A DNA stretch of 64,000 nt from Candidatus Saccharimonadales bacterium. Its GTDB lineage: Bacteria; Patescibacteriota; Saccharimonadia; Saccharimonadales; UBA10212. The translations under genes and the position numbers were made by a program. Positions 3,105 to 24,534 of this stretch are shown here, piece after piece (position 1 is the first letter of the stretch; every line of letters begins with the position of its first letter). The DNA lies in contig JBEKOJ010000001.1 of NCBI GenBank assembly GCA_049521895.1, positions 482,717 through 546,716 on the forward strand, read 5' to 3'. Under the pieces are notes generated by a model. That model saw only the letters and a list, made by a program, of their open reading frames with translations. It was not told the DNA's origin and did not search any database.

Positions 3105-3803
3105 TTAATGGGTGCGGATGTGGTCGATCAACCTCTGGGCCAGCTCGCGGTTACGATATTGAGAAGCCGCGTCAGTGACCCCCCTTAAAATCTCCTTAGC
3201 TACTCTAGGAACCTCGTCGTTGACTACCAGGATAAATCGTTCGTTTTGGATAACTGCTTCCAATTCTTCTTTAGCACTGTGCAATCTTTTAGCACGCTCT
3301 ACGTAACTCATGTGGCCTCGCCCGTCTAGGCGCTGCATCCAAATTTCAAAACTCGGTGGCAAAAGAAAAACTGGACGCAAGTCTGGAACTCGCTGTAAAA
3401 TTTCTTCCGCTCCCCATATATCTATCCTTAGTAACGGTTTCTTGCCGACATTTAGTACAAGCTCGTAAGCTGCCAGACTAGTGCCCGAGACTTGGATATT
3501 ATGAATATTTTTGACCTCAATCATGGCATCAGAATCCAGCAAGTTCAACATCTCTTCTTCGCTGACAAACCAATAACTCTGCCCATTTGACTCATCTGGC
3601 CTGGGTTGGCGTGTGGTGTGGTTAACTACGTATTGCCAATTACTAATTTTCTGAATGTATTGTTCAATGGCGTCTTTACCCGAACCAGTCGTCCCGGCAA
3701 GTATGTGAGGTGGATTCTGCGACAAGAGTTGGACTGCCTCTGCCGGCATTTTGTAGTGTTTTACTAAATCCAGAAGCTTACTGTGAGTATTATCCATTTG
3801 CAA
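3105..3803 (-). CDS. Guanylate-kinase-like P-loop protein (paralog 2)
   Basis: P-loop GTTGSGKD and a GK-type motif HTTRQPRPDESNGQSYWFVSEEEM. Its start abuts the stop of the upstream paralog with no gap. Confidence 0.6.
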   Translation of the reverse strand: MQMDNTHSKLLDLVKHYKMPAEAVQLLSQNPPHILAGTTGSGKDAIEQYIQKISNWQYVVNHTTRQPRPDESNGQSYWFVSEEEMLNLLDSDAMIEVKNIHNIQVSGTSLAAYELVLNVGKKPLLRIDIWGAEEILQRVPDLRPVFLLPPSFEIWMQRLDGRGHMSYVERAKRLHSAKEELEAVIQNERFILVVNDEVPRVAKEILRGVTDAASQYRNRELAQRLIDHIRTH

Positions 3804-12071: not shown

Positions 12072-12503
12072 CTAAACGCCGCCGGATTTCCTAAAGGCCG
12101 CAAAAGCAATAAACGCCAAGGCTAATGCCACTATCACCGCTACCGCCACCGGCATGGACTGGCTCGGGTTAGGATTACCCGGTTTGGGAGGGGATTTTTT
12201 GTCTGATTTCTTAAGGTTTTCACCGGTATTTTTACTATCCGCCTCTGTTGATGGCTTTTTTTCTTCGCGGTTAACGCCTCTTACAACTTGGTCGAACACT
12301 TTGTCGCCGCCGGGATGCTGGTTGGCGGCAGCTGACGGAGCAGCTGCTATGGGATTGCCGGCCGTTTGGCTATCCTGAGCCTTGACCGGAATATTGTTTA
12401 CCAGCTCTGCCGTCACTTGCTCGGCAGCCGTAGGTACCGGAGGGTTACCGGTGGTCGCCGGAGGCGCGAAGTCGCGTATGTAAGGGCTTTTTGCAGGTTC
12501 CAT
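12072..12503 (-). CDS. Pro-rich hypothetical protein with a C-terminal TM anchor
   Basis: Track ORF 12072..12518 starts at a TTG inside a repeat element. The likelier start is ATG 12503 (MEPAKSPY...), preceded by GAGG at 9-nt spacing. Confidence 0.5.
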   Translation of the reverse strand: MEPAKSPYIRDFAPPATTGNPPVPTAAEQVTAELVNNIPVKAQDSQTAGNPIAAAPSAAANQHPGGDKVFDQVVRGVNREEKKPSTEADSKNTGENLKKSDKKSPPKPGNPNPSQSMPVAVAVIVALALAFIAFAAFRKSGGV

Positions 12504-12607
12504 CCCGTTAGACCTCAAAGACTTTCATTGTTGATTGATACGACGAAGCATGCAAGCGATTCAAGACGCCGTAGACGGCACGGAAGTTAAGTGAGGTTCT
12601 AACGGGA
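12503..12607. repeat. 105-bp TIR element, copy A (MITE-like or structured leader)
   Basis: Ends TCCCGTTAGACCTCA ... TGAGGTTCTAACGGGA with the core GAAGCATGCAAGCGATTCAAGACGCCGTA. A second copy lies at 23415-23519 in inverted orientation. Confidence 0.75.
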
Positions 12608-12667
12608 TCCATTACAGAGGTATTTTAGCATAACCACTAATGTTAGCAGATTGCATGGTTTAATTAG

Positions 12668-22101: not shown

Positions 22102-23415
22102 TTATGGTGCCAACCTGTTAATATCTCTAGGAAATAGTGTTGCTTCCTTTACGTTATTTAAGCCGATAATTTTTTCGGTTAATCGCTCTAGGCCCAAACC
22201 GAAGCCGCCATGAGGTGGCAGACCGTATTTAAAGGCTTGCAGGTAGTTCTTAAGACCAGGATCTTCTGGGTCGCCGACGGCCATTTTTTTGAGCTGCTTA
22301 ACCAGAGTGTCGTAGCGGTGCTCACGCATGCTGGTAGTAGCAATCTCCACACCACGGAAGAGTAGGTCAGCACGCTCGGCAAATTTCGGTTTGCCATCTA
22401 TGAGTTTGTGGTAAAACTTGGCCTCGGCTGCCGGCCATTCGGTGACAAATATGGCTTCTGAGCTAAGTTCTTTGGCGGCATATTCACAAATCCAGCGTTC
22501 CTCATCGGGCCGCAGGTCGTTTTCGCCAATGGTATTTTCGCCCGTGGCTTTGGAATATTTTTCGTGGATTTCGGCCATGGTCATAGCTGGAAATTCGGCA
22601 GGCAAAACCGGCTTTTTGGCATTCCAGAGGTTCAGCTGGGCCTCGCATTTCTCCCAAACATCTTTGACGACGGCATTAACTAAATTACTTAACAAGTTAA
22701 GTAATTCAGGGAAGGTGATAAAGCCCATCTCAACATCTATCGTTATAAATTCGGTCATGTGGCGCGTAGTGGCCGACGGTTCGGCGCGGTAAGTCGGGTT
22801 AATTTCAAAAACCCGCTCAAATACTCCCACCATCATCTGCTTATAAAACTGGGCGCTTTGGGCCAATGTTGCCTCTTTACCAAAATAATCCAGTTTGAAA
22901 ACCTCTGCCCCTCCCTCGGTAGCGCCAGGCAGCAGCTTGGGTGAGTTGAACTGGGTAAAATCTTGGCCATTCAGATATTTGCGGATGGCCTCTTCGGTCT
23001 CGGCTTGGATTTTGAATATTGCCTGTTCGCGGTTGTTGCGCAGCCCGATCACGCGTGCATCAAAAAGCGTGTCCAAATTTTCCGGCTTGTGGCTTAGGGG
23101 TTTATCAATTTCTACCGGCGACTCGTCCGTGACTGGTACGTCTACGGTAATTTTCGGCTCATGAATTTCCGCCCCGCCCGGTGCCCGCGGTTCATCAACT
23201 ACTTTTCCGGTGATAGCCAGGATGCTGCCGATCTGCAGGCCGCGCAGTTTTTCAACCTCGCCGTCCTCGCTCAATACGATTTGGACCAAACCGGAGCGGT
23301 CACGCATGACAATAAAGTTAATGCCGCCAATTAACCGTTTTTTGTGCAGCCAGCCTTGGATTTTAATCTCTTGGCCAACGTGGGATTTCACGTCGCGTGC
23401 TAAAACTCGCTCCAT
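22102..23415 (-). CDS. aspS: Aspartate--tRNA ligase, archaeal/type-2 form
   Basis: 437 aa with an OB-fold N-terminus and class II motifs: FNSPKLLPGATEGGAEVFKLDYFGKEATLAQSAQFYKQ, FRAEPSATTRHMTEF, GGFGLGLERL. Confidence 0.85.
   Translation of the reverse strand: MERVLARDVKSHVGQEIKIQGWLHKKRLIGGINFIVMRDRSGLVQIVLSEDGEVEKLRGLQIGSILAITGKVVDEPRAPGGAEIHEPKITVDVPVTDESPVEIDKPLSHKPENLDTLFDARVIGLRNNREQAIFKIQAETEEAIRKYLNGQDFTQFNSPKLLPGATEGGAEVFKLDYFGKEATLAQSAQFYKQMMVGVFERVFEINPTYRAEPSATTRHMTEFITIDVEMGFITFPELLNLLSNLVNAVVKDVWEKCEAQLNLWNAKKPVLPAEFPAMTMAEIHEKYSKATGENTIGENDLRPDEERWICEYAAKELSSEAIFVTEWPAAEAKFYHKLIDGKPKFAERADLLFRGVEIATTSMREHRYDTLVKQLKKMAVGDPEDPGLKNYLQAFKYGLPPHGGFGLGLERLTEKIIGLNNVKEATLFPRDINRLAP
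22683..22706. repeat. 24-bp palindrome AATTACTTAAC-AA-GTTAAGTAATT inside a CDS
   Basis: Has the same core as the palindrome family and encodes LLNLLS within aspS. Confidence 0.7.
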
Positions 23416-23519
23416 CCCGTTAGAACCTCACTCCGCTTCCATACCATTTACGGCGTCTTGAATCGCTTGCATGCTTCAAAACGCAAATATATTCTGATAG
23501 TCTTTGAGGTCTAACGGGA
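23415..23519. repeat. 105-bp TIR element, copy B (inverted relative to copy A)
   Basis: TCCCGTTAGAACCTCA ... TGAGGTCTAACGGGA, with the reverse-complemented core TACGGCGTCTTGAATCGCTTGCATGCTTC. Its first base is the last base of the aspS ATG. Confidence 0.75.
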
Positions 23520-23532
23520 TCCATTCTAGGTG

Positions 23533-24534
23533 TTATTCTACCTCAGATGCGCGTGGTTGGCCATGTTCTTTTTCGGCCTCGTGGTCATTGCCGCGCAGCC
23601 GGCCAAAAATTTGCTGGAGGATGCCTTCCAGAGTGATTACACCCGAGACTTCGTCAAAATTATTAATCACTACCAGCAGCATGGCGCCGGATTGCAAAAA
23701 TTGATCGAGGGCCTGGCGTAAGTTACACGATTCGTTGATAAAAACTGCCGGCGAATGCATCAGATCACGGATGTGGCCGTGGTCTTCCAAGTGGTCCAGT
23801 AAATCTTGCAAATAAAGCACGCCCAGCACTTCCGGGTCGGCTGACTTGGATATTTCTCTGACCACCGCAAAGCGCCTTTGGCCGGTTTTGTGCAGCTCAT
23901 CCATGACCATTGGTCCGATAGTCTCAGACGCCAGCACCCATTTAACCTTGGCGCGCGGCCTCATAGCGTCGCCAACAGTTTTTCCGTCAAAATTTAACGC
24001 GCCGGCGATGGTATCAAACTGGGCCGCGTTTATGCGATTATCTGGCTGGCGCGCCTGGCGCTTGAGCAGATCCAGCAGGTCGGCTGGCTCATAAAGCCCG
24101 GTTGACGGCGATGAGCGATGGCTTTTGATGACCTTGGCGGGCCTGCCAAGCAATGGCTGGAGCAGCCCCAGGATTTTGGCGCTCAGCGGCGCGAGTAGCG
24201 CCACATAGCGCATTTGCCAGCCGGACACGCGCCGGTTAGAACGGCCGGCGAGCGTTACCAAACTTATCAAGACGCCGGTTACCCCCGCCAGCCACCAACT
24301 AGTACGCGCTGCCCAGATAAGTAAACCCACGGCGCTGAAAGTGCCTGCAATCCACAACGCCAACTCCAGCGAGGAGCCGTAAGCTGCCGTTGCATAAAGC
24401 CGGGCAGCACGCCGGTCGTGGCCTAATTTGGCCCGGCGCCTCAGCTCAACCACAGGCAGAGCCCCATAAACTCGCTCAAATAAAACACTGTTACAAAAAA
24501 CCAGCACTAATACTGCCGCCAAGAGTATCATCAT
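23533..24534 (-). CDS. CNNM/CorC-HlyC family protein (DUF21 TM domain plus CBS pair)
   Basis: 333 aa with an N-terminal 4-TM domain followed by a CBS-like region (FDGKTVGDAMRPRAKV...FAVVRE...VVINNFDEVSGVITLEGIL). Confidence 0.75.
   Translation of the reverse strand: MMILLAAVLVLVFCNSVLFERVYGALPVVELRRRAKLGHDRRAARLYATAAYGSSLELALWIAGTFSAVGLLIWAARTSWWLAGVTGVLISLVTLAGRSNRRVSGWQMRYVALLAPLSAKILGLLQPLLGRPAKVIKSHRSSPSTGLYEPADLLDLLKRQARQPDNRINAAQFDTIAGALNFDGKTVGDAMRPRAKVKWVLASETIGPMVMDELHKTGQRRFAVVREISKSADPEVLGVLYLQDLLDHLEDHGHIRDLMHSPAVFINESCNLRQALDQFLQSGAMLLVVINNFDEVSGVITLEGILQQIFGRLRGNDHEAEKEHGQPRASEVE

Follow-up and report, generated by a model that had tools for sequence, protein, structure and literature searches.

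Miniature inverted-repeat elements on bacterial start codons, with a stop-free frame running across them towards the host gene

Several families of miniature inverted-repeat transposable elements (MITEs) have been described in bacteria, among them the Correia/NEMIS elements of Neisseria, the enterobacterial ERIC/IRU and the pneumococcal RUP, which are about 100–150 bp long, form long hairpins in host mRNAs and can alter expression. Here we describe a family built on similar lines, of which two 105-bp copies lie in a 64,000-nucleotide stretch of a Candidatus Saccharimonadales bacterium (assembly GCA_049521895.1, contig JBEKOJ010000001.1, positions 482,717 to 546,716 of the forward strand), hereafter the window. 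Like the elements just named, its members have terminal inverted repeats and a short target duplication, occur in many dispersed copies and carry no transposase of their own. However, while Correia, ERIC and RUP elements insert at TA or at loosely chosen intergenic sites, about 96% of the 154 usable copies of the new family adjoin a start codon. We consider it probable that they form a MITE superfamily spread across phyla, found almost solely on start codons, and tolerated there through a coupled upstream open reading frame (uORF) that the gene's own initiation signals would drive. We know of no bacterial MITE, Correia, ERIC and RUP included, that is specific for start codons, completes a start codon or keeps a stop-free frame up to the host ATG. 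A literature search that included the terminal sequences themselves found no prior description, within a coverage incomplete enough to leave room for an earlier one.

In spite of their likeness to several other systems, the elements differ from each of them: (i) Like the Rickettsia palindromic elements (RPEs), they are palindromic selfish repeats compatible with translation, and two 66-bp relatives, one of them in rpsB, are also in-frame and stop-free. RPEs, however, are in-frame insertions inside proteins, whereas the 105-bp form in the window is out of frame, ends at the host start codon and has inverted repeats and a target duplication. (ii) At ATGA or TAAnnnnATG junctions, termination-reinitiation hands ribosomes on to the following gene and unfolds structure nearby, and the short attI1 open reading frame (ORF) improves translation of integron cassettes that lack an initiation region of their own. 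The new elements resemble such junctions in having a short upstream frame that ends at or near a start codon, with a motif like that of Shine and Dalgarno (SD) just upstream, but the putative coupling device is here transposon-borne and installed by the insertion itself. (iii) As in translational bypass (the phage T4 gene 60 gap and the mitochondrial 'byps'), the insert would be neutralised at translation and is flanked by matched short sequences. For bypass, a stop must directly follow the take-off codon and the gap must go untranslated, whereas the gap of the start-codon element is kept open and appears to be translated; bypass was rejected on this ground and because the two length classes described below would need different shifts. 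(iv) Integron attC sites are also imperfect palindromes of about 60–140 bp with GTTRRRY and RYYYAAC-like boxes (GTTAGAC and GTCTAAC in the elements). In attC, however, the order is R''(RYYYAAC)...R'(GTTRRRY) and the sites follow cassette ORFs in arrays; the boxes of the new elements are reversed, with GTTAGA at the 5' end of each arm, and the elements have target duplications and lie as single copies upstream of housekeeping genes, with no cassette arrays, so this identity was rejected as well.

The two copies in the window (Table 1) had been picked out in an original prediction as 105-bp inverted-repeat elements in opposite orientations, each fused to the ATG of a minus-strand gene. Sequence and alignment bear this out. 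The copies have in common the ends T-CCCGTTAGA(A)CCTCA and TGAGG(T)TCTAACGGG-A, are 82% identical across about 109 bp when copy B is reverse-complemented, and are the only ones in the 64 kb. The predicted 29-nt core is an exact match that no shuffle of the window reproduced, and the left end of each copy indeed adjoins CAT, the ATG of the Pro-rich ORF in one case and of aspS in the other. Overlooked at the time was TCCA on the plus strand at both ends of both copies, a 4-bp target-site duplication. Read on the gene strand, each locus is ATGGA-T(element)-ATGGA, with a second, displaced ATG upstream of the element. The aspS site is without an element in three relatives (L081, L082 and L083, whose AspRS proteins are 78–80% identical to that of the window), in which the order DsbA, CBS-domain gene, aspS is kept and only 5–17 nt lie between the stop of the CBS gene and ATGGA; the window therefore carries an insertion, copy B, by which the start of aspS was duplicated. 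At the locus of copy A, the closest syntenic relative (L084, with an MBL protein 64% identical) lacks the element, at a junction too diverged to align. Copies A and B are MITEs: at 105 bp they are shorter than about 300 bp, the interior of their 34-codon frame is unconserved, the perfect inverted match from the ends (T/A included) is in the family 10–18 nt long, usually 15, and extends past a 1-nt bulge in some copies, and every MITE feature that could be tested is present, apart from the identity of the transposase.

Many more copies exist beyond the window. A pattern that required only the two arms, both intact, gave 77 loci when one genome per species was scanned, and the same pattern run over Joint Genome Institute metagenomes gave at least 79 further distinct copies, which served as an independent replicate. 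Together there are at least 158 distinct copies, 79 from public genomes and the window and at least 79 from metagenomes; most counts of anatomy and frame given here refer to the 154 usable ones (the genomes and window set, then the metagenome matches listed). The MITE reading offered in the original prediction is thus supported by many copies in relatives as well as by the empty aspS site in three genomes, and the link to start codons that it suspected is near absolute. The loci from genomes are mostly in metagenome-assembled genomes (MAGs) of Saccharibacteria, with at least 10 copies in JACPKG01, at least 9 in JACPKF01 and at least 6 in JACOWW01, and are found too in several independent MAGs of Omnitrophota, Planctomycetota and Elusimicrobiota, and in single bins labelled Limnocylindria, Binatia, Gammaproteobacteria, Clostridia and Auribacterota. 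The list of phyla is to be read with care, because five contigs binned as Limnocylindria or Binatia (L004, L015, L043, L070 and L072) carry typical Saccharibacteria subfamilies and are possibly mis-binned. In orientation relative to the gene the family is strongly biased, about 5:1 in the 103/104-bp subfamily, as judged from listings, and with a single orientation in the 106-bp subfamily.

The geometry of insertion follows from base counts at the junctions. In 142 of 155 copies (68 of 77 in the first set and 74 of 78 among the metagenome matches listed), the same 4-mer follows the first base of the start codon on either side of the element. It is TGAA, TGAG or TGGA, rarely TGCA or TGGG, and varies with the host gene. 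At the sixth base of the distal hexamer, 142 of 154 copies have T and 10 have C, whereas the proximal hexamer is free at this position (T in 51, A in 48, C in 29 and G in 26). The rebuilt codon begins with A in 144 copies and with G in 10, and the left end is of the C type in 10. The element therefore runs from T to A (or from C to G), duplicates 4 bp and ends on a base that becomes the first base of the rebuilt start codon, which refines the first reading of the locus: not only the SD-like motif but part of the ATG comes with the insertion. The displaced start codons are ATG in 135 cases, GTG in 11 and TTG in 2, and the element converts GTG and TTG starts to ATG, while the C...G subfamily converts ATG to GTG.

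That the codons reached in this way are those of real genes is indicated by their surroundings. In the genomes and window set, 74 of 79 copies adjoin ORFs of 100–950 codons or ORFs that run off the contig, and the metagenome replicate gives the same picture, 77 of 79 copies adjoining a start codon among the matches listed. Pfam domains start near the N-terminus in 18 of the 20 targets tested, so the rebuilt ATG is the true start. The targets include gyrB, topA, ftsH, murJ, an F-ATPase subunit, a class I tRNA synthetase, ftsW/rodA, fabH and sortases.

The other property that sets these elements apart is the frame that crosses them. Counted from the displaced start codon, frame 0 is free of stops across the interior in 142 of 154 copies (71 of 76 in the first set and 71 of 78 among the metagenome matches listed), whereas frame 1 is open in 2–8 copies and frame 2 in none; shuffled interiors were open in 18 ± 3.7 of 77, with a maximum of 30. 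The frame is open in 72 of 77 copies in their actual orientation and in 26 of the 77 when they are flipped in silico. Its end is as precisely placed. In 94 copies, all with lengths of 1 mod 3, it stops at the TAA in TCTAACGGG, 4 nt before the rebuilt ATG, as in both window copies, where 34 codons are followed by TAA, CGGG and ATG. In 40 others, all with lengths of 2 mod 3, it stops at a TGA that overlaps the ATG (ATGA). One of these two endings is thus present in 134 of 154 copies, and element lengths are a multiple of 3 in 6 of 154. The length class goes with the duplicated bases, TGG duplications, which cannot supply that TGA, being found 29 times in the TAA class and 3 times in the ATGA class. 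The rule of the stop-free frame was seen in at least 12 subfamilies with interiors that cannot be aligned by eye.

What is maintained is, to judge from these sequences, the openness of the frame and not a protein. Conservation of the predicted uORF peptides is confined to the parts that the terminal repeats specify, an N-terminus M-[NSD]-P-V-R-[TP] and the C-terminal residues; the peptide interiors are 24–59% identical for most pairs in one subfamily and unalignable between subfamilies. A phmmer search of the window uORFs against 1.84 billion cluster representatives returned only two tandem-repeat proteins, which we judged spurious, and among 5.8 billion proteins none shared three 5-residue words with the concatenated uORF peptides.

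In the RNA, both the SD-like GAGG and the first two bases of the rebuilt AUG are buried in the terminal stem, which has 11–16 pairs; the suspicion that a long stem could occlude the SD agrees with this folding, and a regulatory side-effect of the stem may exist. Folding energies of the window copies range from −36 to −41.5 kcal/mol (z-scores −2.9 to −5.5). In the family consensus the terminal stem is the sole structure, and in it CUCA/UGAG and CCCA/UGGG covary. Neither window element contains a terminator-like site, and the one weak promoter-like match, in copy B (TAGACC-16-TATATT), has no conserved counterpart among the aligned family members.

In 56 of 154 copies, both window copies among them, a −10-like hexamer precedes the displaced ATG by 4–12 nt, against 22, 11 and 3 at control offsets of equal size; about one-third of the targets have an SD-like motif instead. 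From this enrichment many target genes look leaderless. In the window, the position of TAAAAT suggests a leaderless or near-leaderless transcript for the target of copy A. At aspS, the heptamer TAGAATA is invariant in the window (23525–23545) and in L081–L083 (around 1985–2000), where it overlaps the last codons and the stop of the CBS gene and lies, in the relatives, 7–8 nt before the ATG, which suggests a leaderless aspS transcript that would start inside the end of the upstream gene.

The family also bears the marks of movement and of retention. Copies 94% identical at different loci of one MAG (L006 and L029) point to recent movement, while orthologous insertions in different species, with the frame open in all of them, are only 76% (L008/L011), 79% (L031/L076) and 88% (L029/L050) identical in the element, which indicates long retention. 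The start codon of aspS that carries copy B, a 103-bp-arm form, is occupied by a member of the 106-bp subfamily in L149 (8352–8457; AspRS 77% identical to that of the window), and the gyrB start is likewise occupied by different subfamilies in L012 and L131, which implies either recurrent hits or turnover of elements at the site. An autonomous element is presumed, from which we would expect a DDE-type transposase with a 4-bp staggered cut. The CCC/GGG ends and 4-bp duplication, the only points of likeness, recall the IS1380 or piggyBac type (CC... ends and a duplication of 4–5 bp), a possible lead to the family of the transposase. A search for solitary or long-range paired arms that might mark an autonomous partner, made over the 1.35 Mb of loci sequence, yielded no such partner, only further short family members and a few copies that were truncated or in decay; all-against-all BLAST of the loci revealed no repeated segment of transposase size, and viral contigs gave 0 matches to the element pattern.

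These observations can be brought together in a simple model. Insertion duplicates four bases, TGRR, that is, the TG of the start codon and the next two bases, leaving the original start codon upstream and forming a new one from the element's last base and the duplicated TG. The promoter and original initiation site of the gene would stay intact, shifted 109–110 nt upstream, and its native signals, either a nearby −10 box giving a leaderless mRNA or a native SD, would act on the displaced ATG. Ribosomes would then translate the stop-free frame of 34–37 codons across the element, melting the terminal stem and thereby freeing the SD-like GAGG and the AU of the ATG, terminate at or beside the rebuilt ATG, and reinitiate on the gene with the help of the SD-like motif. 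Such coupling would explain why the frame is open, why its stops fall exactly where they do, why length class and duplicated bases go together, why one orientation prevails, and how the element, being transparent to translation, can sit on essential genes.

Several points weigh against the coupled reading. (i) About 13% of copies have earlier stops, several of them being non-Saccharibacteria copies with a full GGAGG, so the open frame is not always required. (ii) Translation of the uORF, and its coupling to the gene by reinitiation, are deduced from sequence alone. (iii) The stem, which starts at nucleotide 5 of the uORF, is expected to impede initiation at the displaced ATG if ribosomes do not load during transcription; they would probably do so before the 3' arm is made, which is speculation on our part. 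(iv) The copies are related to one another, and the counts overstate their independence. (v) The search pattern, with its demand for two intact arms, is biased towards copies under selection, and decayed ones at neutral sites could have escaped it. (vi) No autonomous transposase was found among the 1.35 Mb of loci examined or by protein matches to the frame.

The simplest alternative on function, already raised in the original prediction, is a plain portable ribosome-binding site, in which ribosomes would bind the element's GAGG and start independently at the rebuilt ATG, the upstream frame being irrelevant. Most copies do have GAGG or GGAGG 9–10 nt before the ATG (the predicted spacing of 9 nt holds for copy A, whereas in copy B it is 10), the 3' arm gives an SD-like motif in either orientation, and early stops are tolerated in several GGAGG-bearing copies of Omnitrophota, Elusimicrobia and Planctomycetes (for example L002, L009, L010, L063 and L069). 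By itself, however, a portable site explains neither why stop-free interiors so exceed their frequency in shuffled sequence nor why the stops fall exactly at TAA+4 or ATGA; many Saccharibacteria copies have only GTGGGT or GTGAGT in place of GAGG, and in the folded RNA the stem pairs both this motif and the first two bases of the ATG. We therefore regard it as unlikely as a full account. A cis-regulatory structured RNA, such as a thermosensor or a riboswitch-like leader, that is not mobile at all could draw on the strong stem that buries SD and start codon, on z-scores down to −5.5 and on covariation at two stem positions. Against this stand target duplications that co-vary with the host gene, relatives with empty sites, functionally unrelated host genes, and interiors that are highly variable, lack a consensus structure and match nothing in Rfam even at E=10; the idea has very little probability. 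We give just as small a chance to the frame being that of a functional small peptide, or else a role-less leftover of a transposase reading frame. The conserved N-terminus and C-terminal residues that would speak for a peptide are encoded by the terminal repeats, while the interior residues are unconserved and protein searches found no credible homologues; as to a leftover, the frame is still open in orthologous copies with no more than 76% identity, and is therefore maintained.

A different question, concerning arrival and not function, is how the elements come to lie on start codons at all. It may be that the transposition machinery of the superfamily actively targets start codons, and that the elements evolved translational invisibility, giving the host a rebuilt start codon and SD together with a coupling uORF; we advance this tentatively, at somewhat less than an even chance. 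A rival with a substantial chance, if a minority one, is that the machinery cuts at loose TRRR sites anywhere and that, in compact genomes, only start-codon insertions survive, since no other site lets the hairpin be translated and the gene be restored. Consistent with survival alone, leaderless-like and SD-led targets are about equal in number and have no upstream motif in common, the orientation present is the one with the open frame, a 66-bp relative lies in frame in rpsB with a TAGA duplication, and the intact-arm requirement of the search would itself enrich for copies under selection. But only about 2.5% of DTGRR sites in the window are at gene starts, and even if non-coding sites and gene starts alone are counted, which leaves the non-disruptive ones, about 16% of insertions would be expected at gene starts, against the 96% or so observed. 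Also against survival alone are the repeated occupation of one start codon by different subfamilies (aspS in the window and L149, gyrB in L012 and L131), the tandem arrays with ATGAAT between their members, and how rarely decayed copies turned up in the rest of the 1.35 Mb of loci sequence.

If translation does run through these elements, they would show a way for selfish DNA to survive in highly compact genomes, even on essential genes (gyrB, topA, ftsH and aspS among them). The family points to a source from which many uncultivated bacteria would have gained short upstream frames and structured 5' leaders. It bears on the annotation of start codons in Saccharibacteria and other phyla, and suggests a leaderless state for many Saccharibacteria genes. 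The element is also a compact natural part: within 105 bp it carries an SD, a single base of the start codon, a 3' arm with stops in its two other frames, and a stem able to mask the start site. Should active targeting be true, start codons would represent a previously unrecognised niche for selfish DNA, and the element a natural portable device for translational coupling that turns leaderless genes into leadered ones.

Table 1. Features of the two element copies and their host genes in the window (positions are those of the 64,000-nucleotide stretch)
Feature	Position	Strand	Description
MITE copy A	12503..12607		105 bp; T-CCCGTTAGA...TCTAACGGG-A; interior in minority (R) orientation relative to gene
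MITE copy B	23415..23519		105 bp; inverted relative to copy A; majority (F) orientation relative to gene
29-nt core, copy A	12545..12573	+	identical in A and B; within moderately conserved TTGAA...TTCAA subfamily centre
29-nt core, copy B	23449..23477	-	as above
Copy A target gene	12072..12503	-	143-aa Pro-rich protein with C-terminal hydrophobic segment; no Pfam match
Copy B target gene	22102..23415	-	aspS, non-discriminating AspRS
Copy A proximal target duplication	12499..12502	-	TGGA; with terminal base 12503 forms the rebuilt start codon (12503–12501)
Copy A distal target duplication	12608..12611	-	TGGA; displaced original start codon at 12612–12610
Copy B proximal target duplication	23411..23414	-	TGGA; rebuilt aspS start codon at 23415–23413
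Copy B distal target duplication	23520..23523	-	TGGA; displaced original aspS start codon at 23524–23522
SD-like GAGG, copy A 3' arm	12513..12516	-	9 nt before ATG; paired in terminal stem
SD-like GAGG, copy B 3' arm	23426..23429	-	10 nt before ATG; paired in terminal stem
Predicted uORF A	12508..12612	-	34 codons and TAA (MDPVRTSLNFRAVYGVLNRLHASSYQSTMKVFEV, stop); stop 4 nt before rebuilt ATG
Predicted uORF B	23420..23524	-	34 codons and TAA (MDPVRPQRLSEYICVLKHASDSRRRKWYGSGVRF, stop); stop 4 nt before aspS ATG
-10-like TAAAAT	12622..12627	-	preceded by TGc; 9 nt upstream of copy A displaced ATG
-10-like TAGAAT	23535..23540	-	in last codons of upstream CBS-domain gene; 10 nt before displaced aspS ATG

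Further identities were tried and set aside. A REPIN or an IS200-IS605-derived palindrome, which would lack a target duplication and have subterminal hairpins in place of terminal inverted repeats, is ruled out by the clear 4-bp duplication and the true terminal inverted repeats. A cis-regulatory RNA or riboswitch of a kind held in Rfam was rejected, there being no conserved internal fold and no covariance-model match to the elements (window searched at gathering score, copy A at E≤10); one tRNA-Asn was the sole match in the window. A programmed frameshift of the RF2 type fails because UUC-UAA offers no slippery re-pairing and the two length classes would need different shifts.

Shorter relatives of 45 and 66 bp have lengths that are multiples of 3 and are read through in frame without a stop. 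In MAG JACPKG01 (L076, 1529–1594), a 66-bp relative with CCCGTTAGA/TCTAACGGG ends lies in frame after codon 7 of the gene for ribosomal protein S2 (rpsB), with a TAGA duplication, and so places about 24 extra residues, with no stop among them, before the S2 domain; another 66-bp copy (L031, 368–433) forms an in-frame N-terminal extension.

Tandem arrays of full members or of members of about 45–60 bp occur in Planctomycete and Omnitrophota loci (L046 721–1413, L010 5935–6050, L044 1102–1199 and L069 7144–7257), the members being separated solely by a 6-nt junction of the ATGAAT/GTGATC type; it looks as though new copies inserted into target duplications left by earlier ones. When members decay, the arm next to the gene seems to be spared: a 5'-truncated copy in L160 (about 3300–3388) retains only the core, the right arm and the ATG junction, and in L070 (at 4311) a solitary right arm stands beside ATGGAT. 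Finally, the intergenic region of L084 that corresponds to the locus of copy A (1960–2100) is without an element and has short AT-rich near-tandem repeats (GCTCAATG/TTCAATG motifs).

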